Position numbers and translations under genes: made by a program. From the IMG/VR virus record IMGVR_UViG_3300016484_000628, positions 1 through 37,110 of that record: a DNA stretch of 37,110 nucleotides. One strand, given 5' to 3'. Below the pieces are notes generated by a model, which made no database searches, was not told the DNA's origin, and worked only from the letters and a program-made list of their open reading frames with translations. Of the stretch, positions 1,981 to 37,110 are shown piece by piece; position 1 is the stretch's first letter; each line of letters begins with the position of its first letter. This DNA comes from a virus. Lineage: Duplodnaviria; Caudoviricetes.

Positions 1981-2279
1981 AGATGGACTGGGGAACGATG
2001 ATGACCGCGCTGCACCCGCCGCGCGCGCAGGAACCCGAGACTGGCGTGGTGGTCAACGTGGACAGCATGCTCGCGCAGGCGCAGGCATGCTCGAGGACGC
2101 ATCGCGTCCGTGACAAGTACGCTGACGCGCGCCGAGCTCTGGACGCGTTGCTGGCTGAGGTCGACCGCCTGTGCCAGGACGAGGACACCGCCGGGACCTA
2201 CTGCCTCGAGCTCGCGGCGGACCGCGTGCGCGGTCTGCGGCCGCTCCCGCCGGCCCCGGAAAAAGAAAGCCCGGCCTGA
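1977..2279 (+). CDS. hypothetical protein
   Basis: ATGA overlap; last gene of the accessory chain; its stop lies in a terminator loop. Confidence 0.6.
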   Translation: MKMDWGTMMTALHPPRAQEPETGVVVNVDSMLAQAQACSRTHRVRDKYADARRALDALLAEVDRLCQDEDTAGTYCLELAADRVRGLRPLPPAPEKESPA

Positions 2280-2287
2280 GCCGGGCT
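2260..2287 (-). terminator. intrinsic terminator (minus strand; possibly bidirectional)
   Basis: Stem AGCCCGGC/GCCGGGCT (2268-2275/2280-2287) with an A-tract on the left, giving a U-tract on the minus strand. Confidence 0.75.
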
Positions 2288-2355
2288 ATTCGATCAACGC
2301 AAGCGCGAAGGGGAGGCGCGCCGGCAGGCTGGGGAGGACCCGCGCTGACCGAACG
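2260..2355 (-). ncRNA. candidate antisense sRNA with two CCUCCCC loops
   Basis: 12-bp stem UUCGGUCAGCGC/GCGUUGAUCGAA (its two G-U pairs form only on the minus strand) enclosing two C-rich loops; followed by the terminator; upstream TTGCGG-N16-CATACT. Confidence 0.6.
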
Positions 2356-2372
2356 CCCCTAGTATGCACGCC

Positions 2373-2389
2373 GTTGCGCCAACCGCAAC
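2373..2389. promoter_or_regulatory. operator palindrome O1 GTTGCG-ccaac-CGCAAC
   Basis: One of six GTTGCG-N5-CGCAAC copies; overlaps the -35 of the candidate sRNA promoter. Confidence 0.8.
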
Positions 2390-2402: not shown

Positions 2403-2419
2403 GTTGCGTTTCCCGCAAC
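2403..2419. promoter_or_regulatory. operator O2 GTTGCG-tttcc-CGCAAC over the putative primase promoter
   Basis: Palindrome; TTGCGT (2404)-N17-CATCAT (2427). Confidence 0.8.
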
Positions 2420-2457
2420 GCCGAGCCATCATCACCGTCCGCACCAAGGGGCTAACC

Positions 2458-5034: not shown

Positions 5035-5227
5035 TGTTGACGATGTTGTCCGAAACTTGCTGAACGGCATTTCCGGACAACAATGGCAACAACTGTGGAT
5101 AACCGGGGTGAAATGTTGACTTTGTTGTATGTGTGTACGCAACGCATTTTTTCGAGTTTTCGTTAACTTTCTGTAATTTCCATCCATTTTCATTCCCCTT
5201 GTACGCGCACATACAACAAAGGCAACA
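5035..5227. other. probable replication origin (iterons, DnaA box, AT-rich tract)
   Basis: TGTTG-N4-TGTTG at 5035 and 5114; CAACA-N4-CAACA at 5078 and 5214; TGTGGATAA at 5094-5102; T-rich tract about 5146-5200; immediately after the primase-helicase. Confidence 0.7.
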
Positions 5228-5257
5228 ACGCGCTGGGTGCATCGGGGAGCGTCTAGC

Positions 5258-5274
5258 GTTGCGTTCCCCGCAAC
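5258..5274. promoter_or_regulatory. operator O3 GTTGCG-ttccc-CGCAAC over the putative terS promoter
   Basis: Palindrome; TTGCGT-N16-TAGGAT just upstream of the terS ATG. Confidence 0.8.
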
Positions 5275-5293
5275 GACGAGTAGGATTCGAGCC

Positions 5294-5755
5294 ATGACCG
5301 GACGACCCACAATCCGAACCGAGGCGATGGTGGACGAGATCATCCGTCGACTGGCCGAGGGTGAGTTCCTGGCCGCCATCTGCCGCGACGAGGGCATGCC
5401 GCACCCGTCGACGTTCCGCAGGTGGGCAGACGAGGACGATGAGCTTTCGCGGCGGTTCGCGCGCGCGCGTGAGGACGGCGAGGAGGCCATCCTGGCGGAG
5501 ACGCTGGCCATCGCGGACGACGCGAGCGGGGACTTCGTGCCGAGCAAGAAAGGCCCCGTATTCGATGCCGAGCACGTGCAGCGCTCCAAGCTGCGCATCG
5601 AGACGCGGATCAAGGCGCTGGCGAAGTTCAACCCGAAGCGCTGGGGCGACAAGGTGGAGCACACGGGACCGGGCGGCGGTCCGGTGCAGTTCGCGGTAGT
5701 CACGTCGGTGCCCGAGGCTGAGCCTGCGGCGCCGCAGGGAGACGACGATGCTTGA
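5294..5755 (+). CDS. terS: terminase small subunit (Sf6 gp1-like)
   Basis: 'GRPT...EII.RLAEGE.L.AIC.DEGMP...T..RW', 'RSKLRIETR...K..PK.WGDK.EHTGPGGGP'. Confidence 0.9.
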   Translation: MTGRPTIRTEAMVDEIIRRLAEGEFLAAICRDEGMPHPSTFRRWADEDDELSRRFARAREDGEEAILAETLAIADDASGDFVPSKKGPVFDAEHVQRSKLRIETRIKALAKFNPKRWGDKVEHTGPGGGPVQFAVVTSVPEAEPAAPQGDDDA

Positions 5756-5960
5756 GCATGCGAAGCGGTGGCAGTGGTGGGTGGCGCTGGTGGCGCGCGG
5801 GCTGGTGACGGTGGTGTGGGCCGTCTACGTCGCGGTGATGGTGGTGGCGTGCGCGTTCCTGGACGCTGCAGGCCGGGCGAACGACAAGATCGCCGCGTTC
5901 GTCCACAAGCGCTGGCCGGCCGGCGTGCGCGAGGCGCTGCGCCAGTGGGGGGAGGGATGA
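5748..5960 (+). CDS. small membrane protein
   Basis: Long hydrophobic stretch; overlaps the terS stop. Confidence 0.6.
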   Translation: MLEHAKRWQWWVALVARGLVTVVWAVYVAVMVVACAFLDAAGRANDKIAAFVHKRWPAGVREALRQWGEG

Positions 5961-6623: not shown

Positions 6624-7969
6624 CAGCCCGCACCGAGACGATCGACCTGGGCTTCCGGCCGCGGCCGTGGCAGTCCGAGGCGTTCCGGCGTCGGCGCAGG
6701 TTCAACGTGCGCGTGGTGCACCGCCGTGCCGGCAAGACCGTCATGGCGGTCATGCGCCTGATCGATGACGCGCTGCGCTGCACCAAGGTCAACCCGCGGT
6801 ACGGCTACATCGCGCCGCTGCTCAAGCAGGCCAAGGCGATCGCGTGGGAGTACCTGAAACAGTACGCCGCGAAGGTCCCGGGCACGAAGATCAACGAGTC
6901 CGAGCTGTACGTCGAGTTCCCGAACGGCGCGCGCGTGCGCATCTTCGGCGGCGACAACCCGGACAGCCTGCGCGGCCTGTACTTCGATGGCGTGGTCCTG
7001 GACGAGGTGGCGGACCTCAAGCCCGAGGTGTGGACCACGATCATCTTGCCCGCGCTGCTGGACCGCACCGGCTGGGCCGACTTCATCGGCACGCCCAAGG
7101 GCGTCAACCTGTTCTCGGAGATCTACTACCGCGCGGTGAAGGAGCAGCAGGCGAACCCGAACGGCGAGTGGTCCGCGATGCTGTACGGGTGGCGCGATAC
7201 CGACGCGCTCCCGGCGGAGGAGATCGAGCGCGCCAAGGCCACCATGCCGGAGGCGCTGTTCCGCCAGGAGCTCGAGTGCGACTTCACAGCGGCGGCCGTG
7301 AACGCGCTAATCCCGATCGACGTGGTGAACGAGGCGGCCGGGCGCCACCTGCGCCAGGACGTGTACGACTTCGCGCCGATCATCCTCGGCGTCGACGTGG
7401 CCCGGCAGGGCGACGATCGCTCGGTCATCTACCGCCGGCAGGGGCTCGCGTCGTGGGCGCCCCTGGTCATGCAGCTGGCGGACAGCATGGCCGTGGCCGA
7501 CGCCGTGGCGCAGCAGATCGCGCTGCACGGGCCGGACGCCGTGTTCGTGGACGGCACCGGTGGCTACGGCGCCGGCGTCATCGACCGGCTGCGGCAGATG
7601 GGCTACGACCCGATCGAGGTGCAGTTCGGCGGAAAGCCTGGTGACCCGCGGTTCGCCAACAAGCGCGCGGAGATGTACTGGGGCCTGGCCGACTGGCTGC
7701 GCGCCGGCGGCGCCATCCCGGACCGGCCGTCGCTCAAGACCGAGCTCACGGCGCCGACGTACTCGCACGACAACGCGCGCGGCGTGCTGCAGCTGGAATC
7801 CAAGGAGGACATCAAGTCCAGGCTTGGTTTCTCGCCGGACGAGGCCGACGCGCTGGCGCTGACGTTCGCCTTCCCGGTGGCCAAGCGCTCGCTGTTCGAC
7901 CGGCCGCCAGGCCAGCGTGGCGCGTCCGACTACGACTCCGAGGCGCGCTGGCTAGGTCAGGGCGTCTAG
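6620..7969 (+). CDS. terL: terminase large subunit
   Basis: Walker A HRRAGKT, Walker B VVLDE, coupling motif GTP, nuclease GVDVARQGDD and SPDEADAL. Confidence 0.95.
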   Translation: MTARTETIDLGFRPRPWQSEAFRRRRRFNVRVVHRRAGKTVMAVMRLIDDALRCTKVNPRYGYIAPLLKQAKAIAWEYLKQYAAKVPGTKINESELYVEFPNGARVRIFGGDNPDSLRGLYFDGVVLDEVADLKPEVWTTIILPALLDRTGWADFIGTPKGVNLFSEIYYRAVKEQQANPNGEWSAMLYGWRDTDALPAEEIERAKATMPEALFRQELECDFTAAAVNALIPIDVVNEAAGRHLRQDVYDFAPIILGVDVARQGDDRSVIYRRQGLASWAPLVMQLADSMAVADAVAQQIALHGPDAVFVDGTGGYGAGVIDRLRQMGYDPIEVQFGGKPGDPRFANKRAEMYWGLADWLRAGGAIPDRPSLKTELTAPTYSHDNARGVLQLESKEDIKSRLGFSPDEADALALTFAFPVAKRSLFDRPPGQRGASDYDSEARWLGQGV

Positions 7970-7970
7970 T

Positions 7971-7987
7971 GTTGCGGGCATCGCAAC
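7971..7987. promoter_or_regulatory. operator O4 GTTGCG-ggcat-CGCAAC at the head-operon promoter
   Basis: Palindrome immediately after the terL stop; TTGCGG-N17-GATTGT. Confidence 0.8.
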
Positions 7988-8064
7988 GCTGTGCGATTGT
8001 TCGCGTCGCGTAAGGGGTGCAAGGCCGGGCTGGGGAGCGCGGCCGCGACGTGAGGCCATCTGCC

Positions 8065-8262
8065 GTGTGCACCAGCAAGCCCAAGCCGCCGCCGCCGGTC
8101 AATCCGCCGCCCCCGCCCCAGTCCGCCGAGGTCGACAAGCAGGTGATCGACGCGCGTGATCGCGAGCGGCGCCGCGCGCAGGGCCGCAACGGCCGCCAGT
8201 CGACCATGCTCGCCGGGGATTCGACGCCCACGGCGCAGTCCAAGACCCTGCTGGGAAGCTGA
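8065..8262 (+). CDS. small pre-portal virion protein (MCTSKPKPPPP...KTLLG)
   Basis: GTG after GAGG; 'MC..P..P' start and 'KTLLG' end typical of the gene preceding podophage portals. Confidence 0.8.
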   Translation: MCTSKPKPPPPVNPPPPPQSAEVDKQVIDARDRERRRAQGRNGRQSTMLAGDSTPTAQSKTLLGS

Positions 8263-28763: not shown

Positions 28764-30539
28764 ATGACCATCAACACCGACCTCGCGAAGGAAATCTACG
28801 ACGGCAACGGCGTCACTACCGCGTTCCCGTTCGGGTTCAAGGTGTTCGTCGATTCCGACCTCGAGGTGACGCTGATCGACGCAAACGGCGTGGAGACGCT
28901 GCAGGTGCTCAACACCGACTACACCGTGGACAACGCCGGGTTCGAGGCTGGCGGCTCGGTCACGTTCACGGACGCGCCTGCCGATGGCGTCACGGTGCTG
29001 ATCAAGTCGGCCGTGCCGTACACACAGCCGGCCGACTACAAGAACCAGGGCCGGTTCTTCCCGGAGACGCACGAGGACAGTTTCGATCGCGCGACGCGGC
29101 AGATCCTCCAGCTGAAAGAGCAGGCGGACCGATCGTTTTCAATCCCTGCCTACATCGAGGGCGTGTCGACGGACCTTCCGGCGCCTGAGGCGGGGACCGT
29201 CGTCGGCTGGGATGGCGACGGCACCGGGCTGCGCAACTACACTGCGTCGACCTTCGTGACCTCGGCGGCGTTCTCGAATTTCAAGGCGGATGTGTTCAAC
29301 CCGTCGGCCGCACAGACGCAGCTAACGCTCAGCGACGACGCAGGGGTGACGGCGAACCTGGACGTTTCGATTGACGGCATCGTGCAGGTCCCGGGTATCG
29401 ACTACACGCTGTCCGGCGCCACGGTGACGTTCACCACGCCGTTTGCAGGCACCGAGCGCGTTCTGATCCGCTATGGAACCGCGATCGCTCAGTCGATCAA
29501 CGCTGCCAGCGGGATTGAGTACACGCCTGTCGTCGGTTCCGGCACGACGGTGGAAGATGCGCTTGATCGTGTCGTCTACATGGATGGCGCGCAGACGATC
29601 ACTGGCGACAAGACGTTCGTGTTCAACCCGGCAACGGCTGGGTCGAGGCTGGAAATCCAGAAGGACGCATCGCCCGTCAACTACGCCGGCACGCGCGCCT
29701 CGCTGGTGTTCCAGCATCGCGACACCGCCGACGGCGGCAACAACGAGGGCATCCCTGCTGCCGTGTTCCTCAGCACGTGGGACGGTGACGGCGTGGTGAC
29801 GGCGTTGCCGAATTTCTCGGCGACCGTTGGCCAGGGCGTGCTGTTCGCTGCCGAAAAGTACGGCGACGGCTCCATGCACTCGGCAAGCTTCAAGGGCCAG
29901 CTGTGGGCTGGCGGCGCTGTGGGATACAACGAGCTTGCCTTGCAGTCCGGTGATGTCACCAACCGCGCGTCCATGAACGGCTATATCGCTGGCACCGAAT
30001 GGCTGCTCAAGGACGGCACTGGTGCTGGCACCTCTGGCGTGGACAATTTCCCGACGGCGCTTCAGGGCTTCGTCTCCCGCATCGCCAAGTGGAACTCTGC
30101 CGCCGCTCCGAATTATCCGTCCATCAACTTCCTCGCTTCGTCCGAGGGCACCGTCGCGCCGGATTCGATCCTCGGAATCAACAACGGCGGCCTCAAGCAG
30201 TGGAAGGTCGGTGTAGACCTGCGAAACGGCACGTACACGACCGGAGCTGCGATCGCCCTCCCGAACGCCGGATACCTGTTTACCAACGACACAGGCGGAA
30301 CCTCGCGCCTGTTCCTAGGCACCAACGCAGCCAACAGTAACGTCATCTACGCCAACGGTAACAGTGGGTACTTCCAGGTCGTGAACGGGCCTGGCACCAT
30401 CACGATGATCGAGTGCAACGACGTGATAGACGCGACCAACCCGATCCTGCTGTACGTCAACGGCGCGCTCAAGCGCGTCACCGTCGGCGCTGCTGATTCT
30501 GGCGGCGCTGGTTTCCGTTATCTCCGAGTCCCCAACTGA
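28764..30539 (+). CDS. tail fibre/tailspike with a T7 gp17-like N-terminal anchor
   Basis: 'Y.GNGVTT.FPF.FKV....L.V', 'YTQ......QG.FFPE.HE..FDR'; beta-rich, lower-GC C-terminal region. Confidence 0.85.
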   Translation: MTINTDLAKEIYDGNGVTTAFPFGFKVFVDSDLEVTLIDANGVETLQVLNTDYTVDNAGFEAGGSVTFTDAPADGVTVLIKSAVPYTQPADYKNQGRFFPETHEDSFDRATRQILQLKEQADRSFSIPAYIEGVSTDLPAPEAGTVVGWDGDGTGLRNYTASTFVTSAAFSNFKADVFNPSAAQTQLTLSDDAGVTANLDVSIDGIVQVPGIDYTLSGATVTFTTPFAGTERVLIRYGTAIAQSINAASGIEYTPVVGSGTTVEDALDRVVYMDGAQTITGDKTFVFNPATAGSRLEIQKDASPVNYAGTRASLVFQHRDTADGGNNEGIPAAVFLSTWDGDGVVTALPNFSATVGQGVLFAAEKYGDGSMHSASFKGQLWAGGAVGYNELALQSGDVTNRASMNGYIAGTEWLLKDGTGAGTSGVDNFPTALQGFVSRIAKWNSAAAPNYPSINFLASSEGTVAPDSILGINNGGLKQWKVGVDLRNGTYTTGAAIALPNAGYLFTNDTGGTSRLFLGTNAANSNVIYANGNSGYFQVVNGPGTITMIECNDVIDATNPILLYVNGALKRVTVGAADSGGAGFRYLRVPN

Positions 30540-30549
30540 GGATACTGCC

Positions 30550-30735
30550 GTGACCCCTGTCGCAGCCCGAAACGCACTTGCCTTCCTGCAGCGCATCAAT
30601 CTGACGCCGGCCGAGATCGGCCCATTCCTCGAGGTGCAGGTCGCACTGCAGGAGATTGCGAGCCCCAAGCCCAAGCCGGTGCAGGTTGATCCGATGCCGC
30701 GCGACGCGCAGCCCGAAACCGAATCCAACACCTAA
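30550..30735 (+). CDS. small protein, possible tail-fibre chaperone
   Basis: GAGGA RBS; directly follows the fibre gene. Confidence 0.55.
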   Translation: MTPVAARNALAFLQRINLTPAEIGPFLEVQVALQEIASPKPKPVQVDPMPRDAQPETESNT

Positions 30736-30754
30736 CGCCGGAGGTCGGCAATGT

Positions 30755-31285
30755 ATGGTCACGAAGGTCAAGCAAACGGGAATCACGGATCTGGCCGTTG
30801 GCCAGGCGCAGCTTGCGGCGAATAGCGTCACCGCCGCCAAGATCGTGGATGGCGCTGTTGGGGCGGCGGAGATCGACGCTGGCGCTGTCGGCGCGAGTGA
30901 AATTGCCGACGGTTCGATCGGCCTTGCGGACCTTTCCGCCGCGGCGACGCCTGCGTTCACCAAGGCATACACGTCGACCGGACAGGCCATCACTAGCGGC
31001 GGTACGCTGACGCTTGCCCACGGGCTTGCGGCCGCGCCGGCGCTCCTGCAGATCAGGCTCAAGTGCACGACTGGCGAGCACGGGTACAGCGTCAACGACG
31101 AGGTAATCGTCGCAGCTGGCGAGCAGCCATCGAACCGTGGCATGTCCGTGGTGTCGGACGCGACCAACGTGGTTATCCGCTACGGCAGCAATGCCAACGC
31201 GCTCAACATCAACGACAAGTCGTCTGGCGCGTCGGCGGCGATCACGAATGCAAACTGGCAGATGATCGTCCGCGCCTGGGCATGA
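30755..31285 (+). CDS. second tail-fibre-like protein with decapeptide repeats
   Basis: GGAGG RBS; repeated I/L-x-D/A-x-A/S-V-x-x-x-K/E units; C-terminal 'HGL...P', 'W....RAWA'. Confidence 0.7.
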   Translation: MVTKVKQTGITDLAVGQAQLAANSVTAAKIVDGAVGAAEIDAGAVGASEIADGSIGLADLSAAATPAFTKAYTSTGQAITSGGTLTLAHGLAAAPALLQIRLKCTTGEHGYSVNDEVIVAAGEQPSNRGMSVVSDATNVVIRYGSNANALNINDKSSGASAAITNANWQMIVRAWA

Positions 31286-31289
31286 ATCG

Positions 31290-31313
31290 CCGGGGCTAGG
31301 CGCCCCGGTTTTT
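31290..31313 (+). terminator. intrinsic terminator ending the late operon
   Basis: CCGGGGC-taggc-GCCCCGG-TTTTT at the convergence point. Confidence 0.75.
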
Positions 31314-31478
31314 CTCACGGCGCGCGCGCGCCTTCTGCACGATCTGGTGGATTCGCTGCGGGCATAGCCCGTGACGATCCCCGAGCTCGCGCAGACTCGG
31401 GGCATCGTCGGACTCGTATTCCGCGAGGATGCGCTCGTCGCGCGCGTTGTTGCGGGACTCCCAGTCTCGTCGGTTCAC
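31296..31478 (-). CDS. small HTH protein (sigma70 region-4-like)
   Basis: GTG after GAGGTG; 'RDERI......SLRELGDRHGLCPQRIHQIV'. Confidence 0.75.
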   Translation of the reverse strand: MNRRDWESRNNARDERILAEYESDDAPSLRELGDRHGLCPQRIHQIVQKARARREKNRGA

Positions 31479-31485
31479 GGGCACC

Positions 31486-32010
31486 TCACTTGCCGTTGGT
31501 GGCGTACTTCTTCTGTAGCCAGTCGATTGCGTCACCGGCGTCGGCAAGATTGCAGTCCGTGTTATCCAGGAAGTGAGCCACCACGTAGTCCAACGCGGCA
31601 AGCAGGGCCACGTCGGCCGGGGCGTCCACGAGCGTGATCGTCATGCTGAGCGGGTATGGGCGGCGCTCGTAGCCGGGCACGGGCGGCGTGCTGACGCCGA
31701 TGGATGCCGTGAAGTCGGGCGACACGGTGGCAGCCTGCTCGCGAAGGATGGTGTTCGGGAACTCCTCCTTCCGCGCGTGGGCGGCCGTCGTCGGAACCTC
31801 GCCGACTAGGTTCCATGCGTGCCCCTCGTTGAACCGGTCCCAGCGGCCGTCGCTCGTCCACCACTGGTCGATGAATTCATCCCCGTCCTTGTCGGTCAGT
31901 GTGCCGCCGAACGGGTAGCCTTCGGGCTGATTCGGGTTGAGCATGTTGATCACCACGGTCCCGCCGCTGGCAGTCCGGTACATCTTGCCCACTTCGATCT
32001 TGATGGTCAT
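31486..32010 (-). CDS. hypothetical protein
   Basis: GAGGA RBS; 'IEVGK.YRT..G..V.I....YP..G....W...G' phage domain. Confidence 0.75.
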   Translation of the reverse strand: MTIKIEVGKMYRTASGGTVVINMLNPNQPEGYPFGGTLTDKDGDEFIDQWWTSDGRWDRFNEGHAWNLVGEVPTTAAHARKEEFPNTILREQAATVSPDFTASIGVSTPPVPGYERRPYPLSMTITLVDAPADVALLAALDYVVAHFLDNTDCNLADAGDAIDWLQKKYATNGK

Positions 32011-32024
32011 GGTCGTGTCCTCGG

Positions 32025-32972
32025 TCAGAAGTCAGGGCCGTCGCCCACGGTGGCGGGCGAGGGGTCGTTCTCGGGCGCGGGGTCGGGCGCCGGCGCGGGC
32101 TTCTCGGCCGTGGCCGGCTTCGCCTTCACCGCCTCGTTGACCTTGCTGGCCACGCTCGACACCGGCTTCGCCTCGTCGCCGAACCAGTCGCTCGGCTTGG
32201 TCATGCCATCGCGCAGGGACTTGTAGATGCCGCGCAGGTCCACCAGCTCCTCGCCGGTCACCTCGTCCAGCTTCTTGCCCAAGCGCTTCTCGATCAGCTT
32301 GCCCGGCACGTCCAGCTTGGCGAACGCGGCCACCAGCGCGCGCACACGGTCGGCCAGCGGCACCTCGCTCTCGCCGCGCAGGGTGGCGCGGCAGCGCTCC
32401 ACGGCGGCGTCCACGAGGTCGCCGGGCAGGATGGCCAGGATGCGCGCGCGCATGCGCCTGGCGCCCATGTTGGCGCCGATCTCGTAGATGTCGCGCTCGT
32501 CGGTGAGGACCTGCTGGCCGCCGTTGCTGGCTTTCTTGTCGCGCAGGTGCTTCACCGTGAATTTCTGCGACGACACCGTGTTCGTCTCGAGGTCCCACGC
32601 GTAGGCGTCCATCTCGGACTCGCCGTCGCGGCGGGACAGTTCGCGCAGGCCGTAGTCGATGTTACCCCAGCAGCGGGCCAGCTCCTCGGCCATGCGGATG
32701 GACGGGCCGCTGACGGTCTGGCCGCCGCGCGGGTACGAGTAGATCGCCTCCTCGGCGAACGACGGGCGCGAGCAGGCGTCCATGACGCGCTGGAACGCCG
32801 CGGCCTGGTCGCGCGGGAAGCGCTTGGCGATCACCAGCTTGCCCTGAGCCTCGGCGACGGCGCGCTCCTGTTCGATGGCGACGGCGCCGGCGGAGACGTG
32901 CTGCGCCAGCGCGGTGCGCGCGAACGGGTTGGCCGACGGGCCGGCGGTGGTGGCGGGAAGGTTCGTGGTCAT
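32025..32972 (-). CDS. putative recombination partner (single-strand annealing-like) protein
   Basis: 'AKRFPRD', 'YSYPRGG..V.GPSIR.AE..AR.WGN'; acidic ...PDF tail; co-operonic with the RecE-like nuclease. Function inferred. Confidence 0.6.
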   Translation of the reverse strand: MTTNLPATTAGPSANPFARTALAQHVSAGAVAIEQERAVAEAQGKLVIAKRFPRDQAAAFQRVMDACSRPSFAEEAIYSYPRGGQTVSGPSIRMAEELARCWGNIDYGLRELSRRDGESEMDAYAWDLETNTVSSQKFTVKHLRDKKASNGGQQVLTDERDIYEIGANMGARRMRARILAILPGDLVDAAVERCRATLRGESEVPLADRVRALVAAFAKLDVPGKLIEKRLGKKLDEVTGEELVDLRGIYKSLRDGMTKPSDWFGDEAKPVSSVASKVNEAVKAKPATAEKPAPAPDPAPENDPSPATVGDGPDF

Positions 32973-32975
32973 GGG

Positions 32976-33245
32976 TCAGTTCCTTGCGATGATGTTGATG
33001 ATGGTGGTCACGACCATGTACGCCGCGAAGGCGAATCCGGAGATGGTGACGATGGCGAGCGGGATGATGTCGGCGAGGTGGAAGTTCCGCTCCTCCTTGC
33101 GGCTGCGCACGATCGCGACGATGCCGGGCAACCCGACGACGACCTTGGGGTATTCGGGAAATTCACCGGTGCGGCGGAAGATCTCCATCCGCTCCTCGGC
33201 GCACCTGCGGAAGATGCTCGCCTGCATGCTGGCCATCGAGCGCAT
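32976..33245 (-). CDS. small membrane protein
   Basis: GAGGAG RBS; C-terminal hydrophobic helix. Confidence 0.6.
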   Translation of the reverse strand: MRSMASMQASIFRRCAEERMEIFRRTGEFPEYPKVVVGLPGIVAIVRSRKEERNFHLADIIPLAIVTISGFAFAAYMVVTTIINIIARN

Positions 33246-33248
33246 GGA

Positions 33249-33482
33249 TTACTCCTCGTCGGTGGTCGGCGGGTTGGTGGGCTCGCCCTGCTGGGCGCCG
33301 GGCAGGCCCATGATGGCGACGCCGCGACGCCCAGCGTCGTAGATGTCGTCGGCGCTGGCGATGACGGCATCCGTCTCGTCGGCGAGGTGGCGGGTCACGA
33401 TGCGGCACGCGCCAGCCTTGGTCTTGGCCAGCACGTAGAACGTCAGGCCCAGCACGGTGACCTTGTGGATCTTGGACTTCAT
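33249..33482 (-). CDS. hypothetical protein
   Basis: AAGGAGG RBS; 'VLAKTKAGA..V..H' small phage protein. Confidence 0.7.
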   Translation of the reverse strand: MKSKIHKVTVLGLTFYVLAKTKAGACRIVTRHLADETDAVIASADDIYDAGRRGVAIMGLPGAQQGEPTNPPTTDEE

Positions 33483-33507
33483 GGGTTGTCCTCCTTCGGA
33501 CGATGGG

Positions 33508-34410
33508 TTAAGCCGCCCACTTGGGCAGCGAGAGGGGGGTGACGGTTTCGGGGTAGCAGGGCCATCTGTTGGTGGCCAGGCACTCGGCGTAAGTGTTGAG
33601 CGGGCGACGGTAGCGCGCGCGGCCGATGGCGCGGAAGTCGGCGTCGGGCTCGTACACCATGACGCCGTGCGGGTTGTCGCGCTCGAACGGGATCAGGAAC
33701 GTGGCATCCGGGCGGCCGACGCCAGACCATTCCAGCGCGTCCTCGCCCAGCGCGACCTGCCGGTTGTAGCCGTAGTTGTGGCACGAGCGCGCGAACGCGT
33801 CAGGGCGCGCGTCGTCGGTGGACTTGAAGTCCAGGTACACCGTCGCGCTGTCGACCTTGGCAAGGTAGTCGGGGCGCGTTTTCACGATGACGCCCGTCTC
33901 CGGGTCGACCGCAAAAACGGACTGCTCGGCGACACCCTTGCCGATCAGGTACGCGATGGTCGGGTGCGCGTGCACCGCGGCGGCGCAGCGCATGAACCGT
34001 TCGTACTCGTCGGCGGTGATGATCTCGCGGCCGGCGTTCTCGGCATCGAAGTGCGCCCACCAGTTGATCGCGAATACCGTGTCGGCCGACGGGTTCTTAG
34101 CGTTGAGCTGCGTGACGGACGGACGGCGCGGCGCGTCCTGGGGAACGACGACGTACCGCACGGCGAAGGTGTCGGGCTCGAGGATGGCCGTGTGCAGGGC
34201 CGTGCCGGCGCGCATGGCCGGTGTGGGCTCCTCGGGCTCGCGGTTTGGGTCCAGGTACTTGGCGTAGTAGTGCGCCGGGCTGCGCTCGACTAGGCCGAGG
34301 CCGGAGTTCGAGACGCCCGGGGCGGCGTGGTACTGCTCGTTGGAAAGGCCCGGGATGATGCCGGTAAGCAAGGGCTGGCAGGGCTCCTGCTCGGGCAAGT
34401 GTTCGGTCAT
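33508..34410 (-). CDS. PD-(D/E)XK exonuclease VIII (RecE C-terminal / DUF3799-like)
   Basis: 'SNEQYHA..GVS.SGL', 'GTALH..ILEP', 'K.RPD', 'DFKST', 'Y..Q.A'; ATG 34410 after AAGGGGA. Confidence 0.9.
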   Translation of the reverse strand: MTEHLPEQEPCQPLLTGIIPGLSNEQYHAAPGVSNSGLGLVERSPAHYYAKYLDPNREPEEPTPAMRAGTALHTAILEPDTFAVRYVVVPQDAPRRPSVTQLNAKNPSADTVFAINWWAHFDAENAGREIITADEYERFMRCAAAVHAHPTIAYLIGKGVAEQSVFAVDPETGVIVKTRPDYLAKVDSATVYLDFKSTDDARPDAFARSCHNYGYNRQVALGEDALEWSGVGRPDATFLIPFERDNPHGVMVYEPDADFRAIGRARYRRPLNTYAECLATNRWPCYPETVTPLSLPKWAA

Positions 34411-34442
34411 GGTGTTTCCCCTTGGTCCGCCGGCGGGGTGCC

Positions 34443-34486
34443 GTTGCGGTAACCGCAACACTAGACGGGCGGACGTGGGTTGTCAA
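34443..34486 (-). promoter_or_regulatory. leftward sigma70 promoter with operator O5
   Basis: TTGACA (34486-34481)-N17-TAGTGT (34463-34458); operator GTTGCG-gtaac-CGCAAC at 34443-34459 covers the -10/+1. Confidence 0.85.
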
Positions 34487-34508
34487 GGGGGGCGCTCGTG
34501 GGCATCAT
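34480..34508 (+). promoter_or_regulatory. putative rightward promoter overlapping the -35 of the leftward promoter
   Basis: TTGTCA-N17-CATCAT. Confidence 0.5.
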
Positions 34509-34514
34509 CGGGGC

Positions 34515-34680
34515 GCGTGCTGAGCAGGGCGCGCGACACCCAGCCGCAGGTGGTGGCTTCAAAAGTTCGGGGCGAACGGCGGCAGGCCCGGGCCGAGATC
34601 CTGCGTTGCAGGCGGGGATCAATGGGCTCCGATCGAATCGGCTGACGGGCTAGGGCCAGGGCGACCTGGCCCTTTCTTTT
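34515..34680 (+). ncRNA. candidate structured ~165-nt RNA (or leaderless 42-aa ORF 34517-34645)
   Basis: Lies between a putative promoter and a strong terminator; contains several hairpins. Confidence 0.45.
34652..34680 (+). terminator. intrinsic terminator
   Basis: AGGGCCAGG-gcga-CCTGGCCCT-TTCTTTT. Confidence 0.85.
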
Positions 34681-34685
34681 GGGGG

Positions 34686-34715
34686 TTGACACTCCGTTGC
34701 GTTTACCGCAACACT
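34686..34715 (+). promoter_or_regulatory. rightward promoter with operator O6
   Basis: TTGACA 34686-34691; operator GTTGCG-tttac-CGCAAC at 34696-34712 in the spacer; -10-like AACACT at 18 bp. Confidence 0.75.
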
Positions 34716-34743
34716 TGTGGTCGCCCACCCTGATAACCCCAAC

Positions 34744-34983
34744 ATGAAGCGCAACGAAATGTCCCCCGCCGAGGTCGTGATCAAGGAGCTCGGCATTCCC
34801 ACGATCGCGGACGCGCTGGGCGTGAACCGGTCGACCATCCATCGCTGGCGCTACCCGCGCCCGCGCGGCAGTGGCGGCCGAGTCCCGAGTTGGTATCATC
34901 CGGACCTGTTGCAGCTGGCGCAGCGCGAAGGGCGCACGCTGTCGGCTGAGGACCTGGTGCTGGGACGAGCGAGGGCCGCCTGA
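34744..34983 (+). CDS. Cro-like HTH regulator
   Basis: 'VIKELG...IADALGVNRSTIHRW....GG.VP' Cro/YdaS-type HTH; first gene of the divergent operon. Confidence 0.85.
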   Translation: MKRNEMSPAEVVIKELGIPTIADALGVNRSTIHRWRYPRPRGSGGRVPSWYHPDLLQLAQREGRTLSAEDLVLGRARAA

Positions 34984-35571
34984 GTGAAGCAGCTGACTGA
35001 GCAGGACTACGCAAAGGCCGCCGCGCGCCTCGGGTGCGAGGTCGCCGCTATCAAGGCGGTGGCCGCGGTGGAATCGAGGGTGTCGGGGTTCCTCGTTGAC
35101 GGGCGCCCAGTCATCCTTTTCGAGCGGCACATCTTCCGCCGGCAGCTGGTCCAGAACCGCGTCGACCCCGCGCCGCACGAGCGCGCGCGACCTGACATCG
35201 TGAACCGCCGGCCTGGCGGATACGTCGGTGGCGCGGCTGAGCATGAACGACTCGCCGACGCGGTGGCCATCAACCGCGATGCCGCGCTCAAGTCCTGCTC
35301 GTGGGGCAAGTTCCAGATCATGGGGTTTAACTGGCGCGCGACTGGCCACGCGTCGCTGCAGGACTTCGTGAACGCGATGTACCGCGACGAGGCCGCGCAG
35401 CTGGATGCGTTCGTCGCGTTCCTGTACGCGGAGGGACTGGACGACGAGCTGGTGCGCCGCGACTGGGCGGCATTCGCCGAACGGTACAATGGCCCGGCGT
35501 ACCGCAAGAACCGCTACGACGCGAAGCTGGCCACCGCGTACAAGCGGTTCGCGATGAGGGCCGCTGCATGA
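34984..35571 (+). CDS. endolysin, N-acetylmuramidase (DUF3380) family
   Basis: 'A.IKAV..VES', 'ILFERH.F', 'SWG.FQIMGFN', 'FA..YNGP.Y..N.YD.KL'. Confidence 0.92.
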   Translation: MKQLTEQDYAKAAARLGCEVAAIKAVAAVESRVSGFLVDGRPVILFERHIFRRQLVQNRVDPAPHERARPDIVNRRPGGYVGGAAEHERLADAVAINRDAALKSCSWGKFQIMGFNWRATGHASLQDFVNAMYRDEAAQLDAFVAFLYAEGLDDELVRRDWAAFAERYNGPAYRKNRYDAKLATAYKRFAMRAAA

Positions 35572-35873
35572 GTGTTGGCATGACGCTACCGCAGCTGATG
35601 GAGATCGTGTTCGTCGGCGTGGTCGGATTCATGGCCATGCGAATCATGTCGCAGGGCAAGGAAATCGACGCGCTGAAACTTGAAATTGAGCGCGATTTCC
35701 AACGCAAGGACGGGCTCAAGGAGATGATTCGCGAGGCCGTCAGTAGCGCCATCGAGCCGCTTAAGGTGAAGATCGAGCACGCGATTGACGAGATCGACGC
35801 CGGGCGTCGTGACACCAACACGATTCTCGACAAGCTGGAATGGCCGGCGGTACGTCGCGATGACAAGCGCTGA
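35568..35873 (+). CDS. membrane-anchored coiled-coil protein of the lysis region
   Basis: N-terminal TM helix followed by a coiled coil; ATGA overlap. Confidence 0.65.
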   Translation: MSVGMTLPQLMEIVFVGVVGFMAMRIMSQGKEIDALKLEIERDFQRKDGLKEMIREAVSSAIEPLKVKIEHAIDEIDAGRRDTNTILDKLEWPAVRRDDKR

Positions 35874-36174
35874 TGATCCGCAGGACCTTATCGAAGCGCT
35901 GCGAGCCCGTCAGGTCAAGACAGACGAGCAACTGCGCGAGCTGCGCGGGCTGGTCGCGCAGGTATCAAACCCGCCGCAGGTGGTCAGTGCCAACGTCCAC
36001 CAATCGCCTGGGAGCGGGCTGGTCATCGCGTGCGCCGTGATGTTCGGCATGAACGTGATGCTGGCGGCGCTGGTGGTGGTGATGGGGATTCGACTGTTCG
36101 ACCTGGATGACAAGCTGAGCGCGATCTACATGCTGGCCCCGCATCTCAAGCCCGAGGAGGGCGCACGAAAATGA
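35860..36174 (+). CDS. membrane protein of the lysis region
   Basis: Coiled coil followed by a long hydrophobic helix. Confidence 0.65.
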   Translation: MTSADDPQDLIEALRARQVKTDEQLRELRGLVAQVSNPPQVVSANVHQSPGSGLVIACAVMFGMNVMLAALVVVMGIRLFDLDDKLSAIYMLAPHLKPEEGARK

Positions 36175-36365
36175 GCACCGTCATCATCCTGACCCCGCCG
36201 CCCCCGCCCCCGCCCCCGCGCGACCCGAAGCTGGCTGACCCCGATGGGTTCGCGCAGCAGGTCCGCCTGGTGGGCTCGGATGATGCGGGCGAAGAAGCCA
36301 AGCGCATGATCGATGATGCCGTCGCCGCAGGCTGGACCGTCCGCGTGGTGAGGGCTGACGAATGA
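36171..36365 (+). CDS. small Pro-rich hypothetical protein
   Basis: GAGGAGG RBS; ATGA overlaps at both ends. Confidence 0.65.
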   Translation: MSTVIILTPPPPPPPPRDPKLADPDGFAQQVRLVGSDDAGEEAKRMIDDAVAAGWTVRVVRADE

Positions 36366-36778
36366 ACGGCGTGCTCAAGTCCGCGGCTTGGTCGCTGCTG
36401 GCCGGCATCGTGTACCTGTTCGCCGCGCACGGCAAGGCGTTCTTCGAGGCCATGCACGCGGGCTGGCTGTTCTTCGTGAAGGTGACGAGCGACGCGCCGC
36501 TGGGCCTGTCCTCGTTCCTGCTCGCGCTCGCGCTGGCCACCGCGTCGCAGCCGTTCCTGACAAGGTGGATGCCGGCGCTCAAGTGCCCGCTGTCGCGCGA
36601 GTTCCTGATCGAATCCGCGGCGCTGGTGATCGGGCTCGGCGTCATGTGGGCGCAGCTGCGCACGCTGCCCGCGCTGATGCTGGGCACGCTGGCCGGGCTG
36701 CTGGCGCCGTATCTGCACAAGGGCCTGCATGCGCTGGTGTCGCTGACCGCGCGCGCTATCCGGGGCGGTGCGCCGTGA
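36362..36778 (+). CDS. multi-TM protein, holin candidate
   Basis: Three to four hydrophobic helices; lies upstream of the spanin. Confidence 0.55.
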   Translation: MNGVLKSAAWSLLAGIVYLFAAHGKAFFEAMHAGWLFFVKVTSDAPLGLSSFLLALALATASQPFLTRWMPALKCPLSREFLIESAALVIGLGVMWAQLRTLPALMLGTLAGLLAPYLHKGLHALVSLTARAIRGGAP

Positions 36779-37110
36779 CCTGGGCCGCGCTGGTCAAGCT
36801 GCTCGGCGGCATGCGCGCCACGGTGTTCGCCGGGCTCGCGCTGGTGCTGGCGATCGTGGCCGGCGTGCAGACGTACCGCGTTGACGACCGTGGCGACACC
36901 ATCGACGGCCTGCGCGCCGCCGCCGTGAATTGGGAGCAGGCCAACCGCGACAACGTGAAGGCGATCGAGGACCTGCGCAAGGCGAACGCCGCGTGGGCCG
37001 CTGCTGCCGACAACCGAACAAGGGAGGCGATCGAAGCGGTCGCCGCCGCCCAGGCCGAACGCGACCGGCTGCGGGCGGAACTTGACTCTCGTCGTCGCGA
37101 ACGCAAGGGG
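36775..37110 (+). CDS. Rz-like i-spanin (truncated by window end)
   Basis: GTGA overlap; N-terminal TM (VFAGLALVLAIVAGVQ) followed by an Ala-rich coiled coil; open to the window edge. Confidence 0.7.
   Translation, partial: MTWAALVKLLGGMRATVFAGLALVLAIVAGVQTYRVDDRGDTIDGLRAAAVNWEQANRDNVKAIEDLRKANAAWAAAADNRTREAIEAVAAAQAERDRLRAELDSRRRERKG

Follow-up and report, generated by a model that had tools for sequence, protein, structure and literature searches.

A predicted operator-covered small RNA beside the primase gene of an uncultured freshwater phage, with the head-operon leader as a candidate target

The gap that precedes the primase gene in the genome of an uncultured freshwater phage raises the question of whether a regulatory RNA is encoded there on the strand opposite the primase and, if so, on which transcripts it acts. 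The DNA analysed, henceforth the window, is a virus record of 37,110 bases that codes for a primase-helicase, a RecE-like exonuclease, a muramidase and terminases alongside head, connector and tail genes of podovirus type. It had been proposed from inspection of the letters alone (the sequence-only reading) that a minus-strand RNA with two CCUCCCC loops serves here as master regulator of replication, recombination and head genes in a phage with no visible CI protein. The closest primase in a named record (L132, 69-73% identity) lies on a contig binned as Lysobacteraceae, and the terminator stem of the predicted RNA also ends genes in Lysobacteraceae genomes; given these two observations a host of the Lysobacteraceae group is likely. 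In ten Lysobacteraceae prophages the primase gene stands directly behind other genes, with neither operator nor leader. The window stretch was matched in one freshwater run, from which it may originate, and, at 93% identity, in one wastewater run, whose version is termed X2 below. The coordinates of all features are collected in Table 1.

Table 1. Features of the predicted RNA unit, its operators and candidate targets (window coordinates), and leader structures of related phages (coordinates of their own records)
Feature	Position	Strand	Evidence or remark
Predicted sRNA gene of ~95 nt (two C-rich tracts within a closing stem, then an intrinsic terminator)	2260..2355	-	fold z; X2 conservation
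Closing stem, 5' arm	2342..2353	-	fold
Closing stem, 3' arm; 2297 altered in X2 (G.U to mismatch)	2289..2300	-	X2 comparison
5' C-rich tract (CCUCCCC), weakly structured; 12 bp with 8026-8037 when extended by the following bases	2331..2337	-	accessibility
3' C-rich hairpin loop CUCCCCUUC, fully open	2307..2315	-	accessibility
Intrinsic terminator, 8-bp stem (2287-2268) and U-tract	2260..2287	-	U-tract on minus strand only
Predicted RNA promoter, TTGCGG (2388-2383)-N16-CATACT (2366-2361)	2361..2388	-	layout shared with relatives' promoters
Operator O1, GTTGCG-N5-CGCAAC, overlapped by RNA promoter	2373..2389		perfect copy
Operator O2, overlaps divergent primase promoter (-10 CATCAT at 2427-2432)	2403..2419		
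Operator O3, terS promoter	5258..5274		
Operator O4, before head operon	7971..7987		
Operator O5, RecE operon	34443..34459		
Operator O6, HTH and lysis operon	34696..34712		
79-aa Cro-like HTH protein	34744..34983	+	Pfam HTH_23, E 3e-5
Head-operon leader, three-way junction, AGGGG and GGGG in its two loops	8000..8055	+	z -3.15
Candidate target site for 3' loop	8007..8017	+	two-seed search
Candidate 12-bp target site for 5' tract (seed first proposed at 8028-8037)	8026..8037	+	accessibility-corrected ranking
Primase SD AAGGGG, weak 6-bp candidate	2446..2451	+	rank 432 of 1,082; 13th of 47 starts
RecE SD AAGGGGA, weak 7-bp candidate	34417..34423	-	rank 101 of 1,082; 5th of 47 starts
G-rich SD of gene 5957 (seed 5949-5955), 9-bp anti-SD-type candidate	5947..5955	+	rank 5 of 1,082; 2nd of 47 starts
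Primase-leader cloverleaf, L001	1219-1273	+	
Primase-leader cloverleaf, L213	596-650	+	
Primase-leader cloverleaf, L132	1251-1309	+	
Primase-leader cloverleaf, L214	1605-1663	+	
Primase-leader cloverleaf, L215	5960-6018	+	
Primase-leader cloverleaf, L212	1039-1096	+	
Primase-leader cloverleaf, L004	5332-5390	+	

The positions first given for stem, terminator, promoter, operator and seeds all agree with the sequence, and folding of both strands bears out the preference for the minus strand: the minus-strand segment 2355-2260 folds at -49.9 kcal/mol with a z-score of -4.81, none of 200 shuffles being equally stable, as against a z-score of -2.37 for the plus strand. With the terminator removed the corresponding values are -2.79 and -0.64. 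The closing stem includes G.U pairs at 2349.2293 and 2345.2297, and the terminator has its U-tract on the minus strand only, as had been claimed; there is no minus-strand gene for it to end. Of the two C-rich tracts in the predicted branched fold, the one in the 3' loop is fully accessible (0.0 kcal/mol to open), while the 5' CCUCCCC costs about 2.5 kcal/mol. The branched fold depends on where transcription begins: with a 5' end no higher than 2358 the 3' C-loop is free, any start from 2359 upward brings in a G-run that pairs with it, and a transcript starting at 2381 would shut that loop by 5.2 kcal/mol. The predicted start near 2355 falls in the range in which the loop stays open. A terminated minus-strand small RNA is thus likely, and a functional RNA of some kind, summed across the explanations weighed below, is probable. 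A 27-codon minus-strand frame across the RNA (GTG at 2369) was rejected as a coding alternative, as it begins upstream of the -10 box and has no Shine-Dalgarno sequence (SD).

The predicted promoter belongs to a wider control layer. The palindrome GTTGCG-N5-CGCAAC occurs in six perfect copies in the window, against 0.41 expected, and each heads an operon; the layer also covers the promoter of the RNA itself. In the primase and terS promoters of four relatives (L001, L054, L212 and L213) the -35 element lies in the left arm of the operator and the -10 box follows six or seven nucleotides past it, and the RNA promoter shows this same layout; its -10 hexamer recurs in an antisense unit of another relative, L053 (see below). 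The proposal of a promoter over O1 therefore stands as to its coordinates and by comparison with relatives, but not by a strict sigma-70 scan, which reports no promoter for the RNA, so that the support is comparative. An alternative with TAGTGT as -10 was set aside, as it has a 19-nt spacer and its transcript would have a closed loop. The protein likely to bind the six operators is the 79-aa helix-turn-helix (HTH) protein, which has homologues in seven distinct related phage records; a distant one is annotated as Cro-like in phiLM21, and in G403, G405 and L004 the homologous gene is divergent from a CI-like repressor gene, the repressor having 196 aa in G403 and L004. The operator that covers the RNA promoter is shared with the lytic promoters, and the RNA would accordingly be expressed along with the lytic genes, unlike the c4 and CI RNAs.

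Several features of these control regions were observed alongside. A CI-like gene beside the same Cro-like gene and operators is present in G403, G405 and L004 and absent from the window, G404 and G406; among these closely related phages the repressor appears, from gene content, to have been repeatedly lost or gained. The motif TCTAG(T/C) precedes four of the six operators (2391-2396, 5252-5257, 7965-7970 and 34461-34466), and X2 changes position 2396 towards the GTCTAG form seen at the other three of these sites; the motif may be part of the protein site or, at RecE, a -10 box (TTGACA-N17-TAGTGT). Both terS (region 5258-5296) and the HTH gene (region 34696-34746) seem leaderless, with no SD before either; the terS start codon lies about 7 nt past the -10 box, and likewise in L001, L054, L212 and L213.

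Comparison with X2, which differs from the window at 104 of 1,548 positions, reveals only two changes in 2260-2395, at 2297 and 2325 (P 0.0025). For the RNA alone (2260-2355) the two changes compare with 6.7 expected (P 0.03), whereas conservation does not reach significance for the body taken without its terminator (2289-2353; P 0.17). Both C-rich tracts and the terminator are unaltered, and the change at 2325 falls in a small loop. The stem shows no covariation: X2 has no compensatory change, and the sole stem change, at 2297, replaces one of the closing stem's G.U pairs by a mismatch, with the fold persisting at -48.2 against -49.9 kcal/mol. As the changes in X2 are few and one of them breaks a stem pair, the alignment suggests purifying selection on the region without covariation.

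Direct searches for homologues of the RNA gave none beyond X2. A blastn search against phages returned seven records matching in primase fragments only, and pattern scans of viral contigs gave no match in one case and a single unrelated match in the other. A scan for the operator pattern hit 15 loci, all of which lacked both additional operators and the RNA, and a RecE scan yielded no matches. A single-sequence model of the window RNA (R2) found no homologue over 88 loci (best non-self E 1); in 150 Lysobacteraceae genomes it gave weak matches in 78, the best scoring 37.6 bits against 124.6 for the RNA itself, and these were rejected as homologues, the ten best being driven by the shared terminator. 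Across the whole window no Rfam family attains its cut-off, and searches of the literature outside subscription papers listed no report of this RNA or of a small RNA inside a phage primase linker. As a side observation, four Lysobacteraceae loci (L251, L254, L255 and L256) have a conserved host gene (C-terminus WFVGPR..) whose 3' region carries a CU-rich loop followed by the terminator stem of the phage RNA, possibly a small RNA of the host 3'-UTR.

Units of comparable design are nevertheless present in relatives, antisense within the coding region of the primase linker. In L001 (2381-2267, minus strand) the unit comprises operator, promoter, terminator and an RNA of 70 nt in which two loops are C-rich (z -3.8), and in L053 (about 490-329, minus strand) a unit with three C-rich tracts and a terminator-like hairpin. 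Seven relatives' primase linkers were read, and the complete antisense unit is absent from the other five; the window's own linker retains at most half an operator. In the homologous primases the linker carries the operator-spelled peptide DA..AT in 18 of 120 cases (among proteins P0004-P0071), against 0-2 in four control windows. The L001 and L053 units are best regarded as analogues: they share the design of the window RNA, but a sequence relationship to it is unsupported. We infer that the window unit was derived from such primase-linker units.

A second kind of RNA structure, on the sense strand, is found in the primase leaders of relatives, where seven loci display a cloverleaf of five types (L001; L213; L132/L214/L215; L212; L004). 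Its stems covary, with five of 14 pairs changed on both sides among five sequences, three of which are near-identical. In all seven rows the longest complementary stretch of the last loop (6-7 nt) lies in the start region of its own primase, although ranking by duplex energy puts the cognate pair first in just one of the seven. Three cloverleafs tested by E-value had no Rfam match. A model of the structure built here (R1) finds L212 at its primase leader (E 0.044). The primase leader of the window is about 20 nt long and lacks the cloverleaf, and the window RNA was rejected as a homologue of it, as R1 has no match at 2260-2355 with filters off at E<=10; three matches of R1 in 151 genomes comprised one training sequence and two sites inside host genes, the latter two being discarded. 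Separately, L243 (12732-12866, plus strand) and L069 (8434-8569, plus strand) combine an operator and a strong TTGACA..TAGATT promoter with a terminated RNA of 70 nt that has GGGG in a loop (z -4.4 and -4.8), and a GGGG-loop unit of this kind is also seen in L061, L063, L064 and L067.

The most distinctive candidate target of the window RNA is the head-operon leader. Its closing stem extends to the SD of the gene at 8065, from which its G-runs are distinct; G403 and G404 have a homologue of this gene whose start corresponds to 8065. Opening the loops that hold the G-rich sites costs 0.0-1.5 kcal/mol if the leader starts at or before 8001; a transcript start at 8007-8008 would leave them less open. 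When 1,082 sites are ordered with the accessibility of both partners taken into account, 8026-8037 comes out on top outside the RNA's own locus, and its 12-bp helix takes in four bases beyond the C-run. Only two co-linear two-seed pairs exist in the window, at -33.0 (head leader) and -20.3, and the value of -33.0 was reached in 22, 15, 14 and 27 of 600 simulated genomes for Markov orders 2-5, corresponding to a chance of 2-5% genome-wide under a null that is conservative, as the training text contains the head site. In SD-rich simulated stretches of 500 nt it was reached in 35 and 46 of 20,000.

Other measures are less favorable. Plain local alignment scores the leader at 30-33, compared with 34-42 for the best chance match genome-wide, and when the shuffle test by such alignment was limited to five operator-downstream stretches, 236 and 424 of 5,000 shuffles were as good. 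By raw duplex energy the leader is seventh among the trans sites, and by cofolding gain the start region of gene 5957 (-16.1 kcal/mol) exceeds it (-9.7 and -10.1 kcal/mol). The claim that the leader carries both seeds in the same order is accordingly upheld by its rank as the best accessible site and the only strong two-seed pair, whereas plain alignment and raw duplex energy do not single it out, and the seed matches exceed chance by the two-seed nulls but not by plain alignment. An 11-bp match inside the HTH gene (34922), which outscores the leader in plain alignment, was rejected: it involves no G-runs and drops to 35th with accessibility. The leader was absent from the 25 terL relatives inspected. 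Specific action on the head-operon leader is the best single reading of these data, at a probability of roughly 0.45.

The foremost rival interprets the RNA as a general agent against SDs and G-runs of phage early and host mRNAs, in the manner of sX13 or of a toxic-sRNA-like takeover, for which the head match would be incidental. The pairing of its loops with many start regions is in keeping with this: among 47 curated starts (two of them set one base off) the best loop pairing falls on the genes at 26, 5957, 1622 and 1016, eight of the 13 top regions are those of small, functionally uncharacterised genes (26-1977 and 5957), and several small early genes pair as well as or better than primase and RecE. 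The L001 and L053 analogues, moreover, keep C-rich tracts of differing sequence, and the best sub-threshold Rfam matches to the RNA are CU-rich small RNAs, headed by RF02278. The 9-bp site at the SD of gene 5957, proposed earlier as a target, survives by length, rank and cofolding, but it is of this anti-SD type. Weaker, unspecific pairing with G-rich ribosome-binding sites (RBSs), namely those of 5957, the small early genes, RecE, primase and host mRNAs, is indeed likely from the pairing models. That such pairing is the whole of the RNA's function is nonetheless doubtful, if a serious contender, given that the 12-bp helix with the head leader reaches four bases past the C-run and that the two-seed geometry is rare.

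It could alternatively be argued that no trans-acting RNA exists, the terminator merely stopping a divergent transcript from the operator promoter or guarding the convergent early operon, with stems and C-runs as by-products. Palindromic operators whose left arm serves as -35 can fire both ways, and the broken stem pair in X2 and the non-significant conservation of the RNA body accord with such a view. It is rendered rather improbable by the body's capacity to fold by itself, which is confined to the minus strand (z -2.8, the plus strand giving -0.6), and by the recurrence of the unit design inside the coding region of L001 and L053.

The sequence-only reading itself, a CI-replacing RNA in command of the replication, recombination and head operons, fares poorly. 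The absence of a visible CI was confirmed insofar as the two CI proteins of relatives have no tblastn match in the window at E<=1, but the Cro-like HTH protein and the six operators form a protein-based control layer, and therefore the notion of a master regulator replacing CI is not supported. The same CI proteins have no match in the fetched stretches of G404 and G406, and in those stretches these CI-less phages show no such RNA unit, G406 having instead an RNA with a terminator and a loop rich in G. For primase and RecE, specific control was not borne out: the 6-bp and 7-bp matches hold only ranks 432 and 101, the cofold gain for primase is only -1.2 kcal/mol, and both appear, on these models, to be ordinary anti-SD pairings. 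The operator shared between the RNA promoter and lytic promoters tells against such a regulator as well. On its side, AAGGGG has nine copies on both strands, one in the RNA locus and three in operator-controlled leaders, and the match of the relatives' leader RNA loop to the primase start region makes RNA control of this primase a theme of the family; the rarity of the motif and its placement in three such leaders therefore leave the three-operon model a small chance, and we regard it as unlikely. Least credible is a reversal of roles in which the head leader would act late in infection as a sponge that frees the RNA's other targets, as the leader, though it shows both G-runs in loops and neither is its SD, gives no independent sign of being a stable separate RNA and is followed by no terminator.

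With respect to known systems, a close likeness is to sX13, of which Rfam holds a model. The sX13 RNA of Xanthomonas is described as a trans-acting RNA of about 100 nt whose C-rich loops repress mRNAs through G-rich motifs near their starts, some of them not at the RBS itself, independently of Hfq; it is chromosomal, lies downstream of polA and forms three separate stem-loops (PMC3771888). The window RNA resembles it as a structured RNA of about 100 nt with C-rich loops (one fully open, one partly) facing G-rich motifs in the same likely host group, and predicted pairing would allow repression through such motifs as in sX13. It differs in being phage-encoded, in enclosing its C tracts in one closing stem and in standing under a phage operator, and it has no Rfam match to the sX13 family. 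The 6C RNA of mycobacteria likewise binds directly by C-rich loops, its targets including the replication gene dnaB according to the cited account (PMC6486639). Such loops are shared with both 6C and the toxic small RNA of Betaproteobacteria (RF02278), two host-encoded families, the latter reaching 17.6 of the 50 bits required (E 0.29), a score owed mostly to the terminator.

Membership in the c4 or P4 CI class, suggested by the two-loop design, finds no support in Rfam matches, terminator position or flanking targets. The c4 RNA of P1/P7 is described as a three-stem RNA cut from a longer transcript by RNase P, whose two loops act on two target sites near the RBS of the ant mRNA and thereby keep lysogeny (PMC5320573; PMC12197685). 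The window RNA would resemble it in using two loops on two target sites, and its predicted fold is branched, though only one of the two C tracts is a fully open loop; unlike the described c4 precursor it has its own terminator directly after the closing stem, and its best target lies 5.7 kb away, before the head genes. The c4 model RF01695 has no match at its gathering score or at E<=10, and no antirepressor was found among the proteins scanned against PHROGs (52, plus seven window proteins). The CI RNA of P4, according to the source cited, pairs with seqA and seqC, which flank it on the same transcript, and causes termination (PMC4825925). Both it and the window RNA are small structured RNAs beside replication genes, but the latter is on the strand opposite the primase; no flanking sites occur downstream, where the terminator follows, and the upstream G-run would pair with the loop only if transcription began at 2359 or further upstream. 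The P4 CI layout is closer to the relatives' primase-leader cloverleafs (L001, L213, L132, L212, L004) than to the window RNA.

Returning to the head-operon leader as the preferred target, what the locus exhibits is a promoter-like layout, a strand-specific fold and a terminator, and these make likely a free-standing terminated RNA encoded at 2355-2260 on the minus strand, its operator-covered promoter being divergent from that of the primase. Its transcription, and its control by the Cro-like protein jointly with the lytic promoters, would make it a lytic-phase modulator rather than an immunity factor of the lysogen. Predicted loop-loop contacts at 8012-8017 and 8032-8035, extending to the 12-bp helix, would open the leader hairpin, and the pairing would probably dampen or delay translation of the head genes. 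The direction of the effect is the least certain step, repression being assumed by analogy with sX13 and c4: simulated binding of the RNA lifts the opening cost of the SD from 1.4-4.1 to 6.0-6.8 kcal/mol but leaves that of a 30-nt RBS window unraised (10.7-13.7 as against 10.8-11.6 kcal/mol).

A more sweeping and less probable proposition is that widespread proteobacterial podoviruses hide a complete operator-controlled small RNA gene antisense in the primase linker, and that the free-standing unit of the window opens a mirror-image cloverleaf in the head leader by double loop-loop contact, timing capsid synthesis without CI. The two-loop RNAs known from phages (c4, CI) act on their own operon to maintain lysogeny; if the proposition were true, a phage small RNA under a lytic operator, acting at a distance on a head leader folded for the purpose, would represent a different use of the two-loop principle. 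An RNA gene overprinted on the primase linker would explain the odd conserved peptide in this variable region, and its footprint would make many further members recognizable from protein sequences alone.

Other features of the window came to light in the course of the analysis. Between the RecE and HTH operons lies a second unit of promoter, RNA and terminator (34480-34680, plus strand), with an RNA of about 165 nt and a terminator at 34652-34680; its promoter, TTGTCA-N17-CATCAT, is the only one reported by a strict scan of 30000-37110. The first domain of this RNA is kept in G403 and G404 with three pairs changed on both sides; a pattern scan found only the G403 and G404 records, and no Rfam family reaches its cut-off. 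A small ORF at 31299-31601 on the minus strand, whose start codon is uncertain, weakly resembles late activators of the Mor family (Pfam E 0.016; PHROG 532, E 0.003). Finally, the stretch after the primase (5035-5230) is non-coding and AT-richer, with ACAAC/GTTG repeats and a TGTGGATAA box; it is conserved in L001 (82% over 60 nt) and is likely to be a replication origin.
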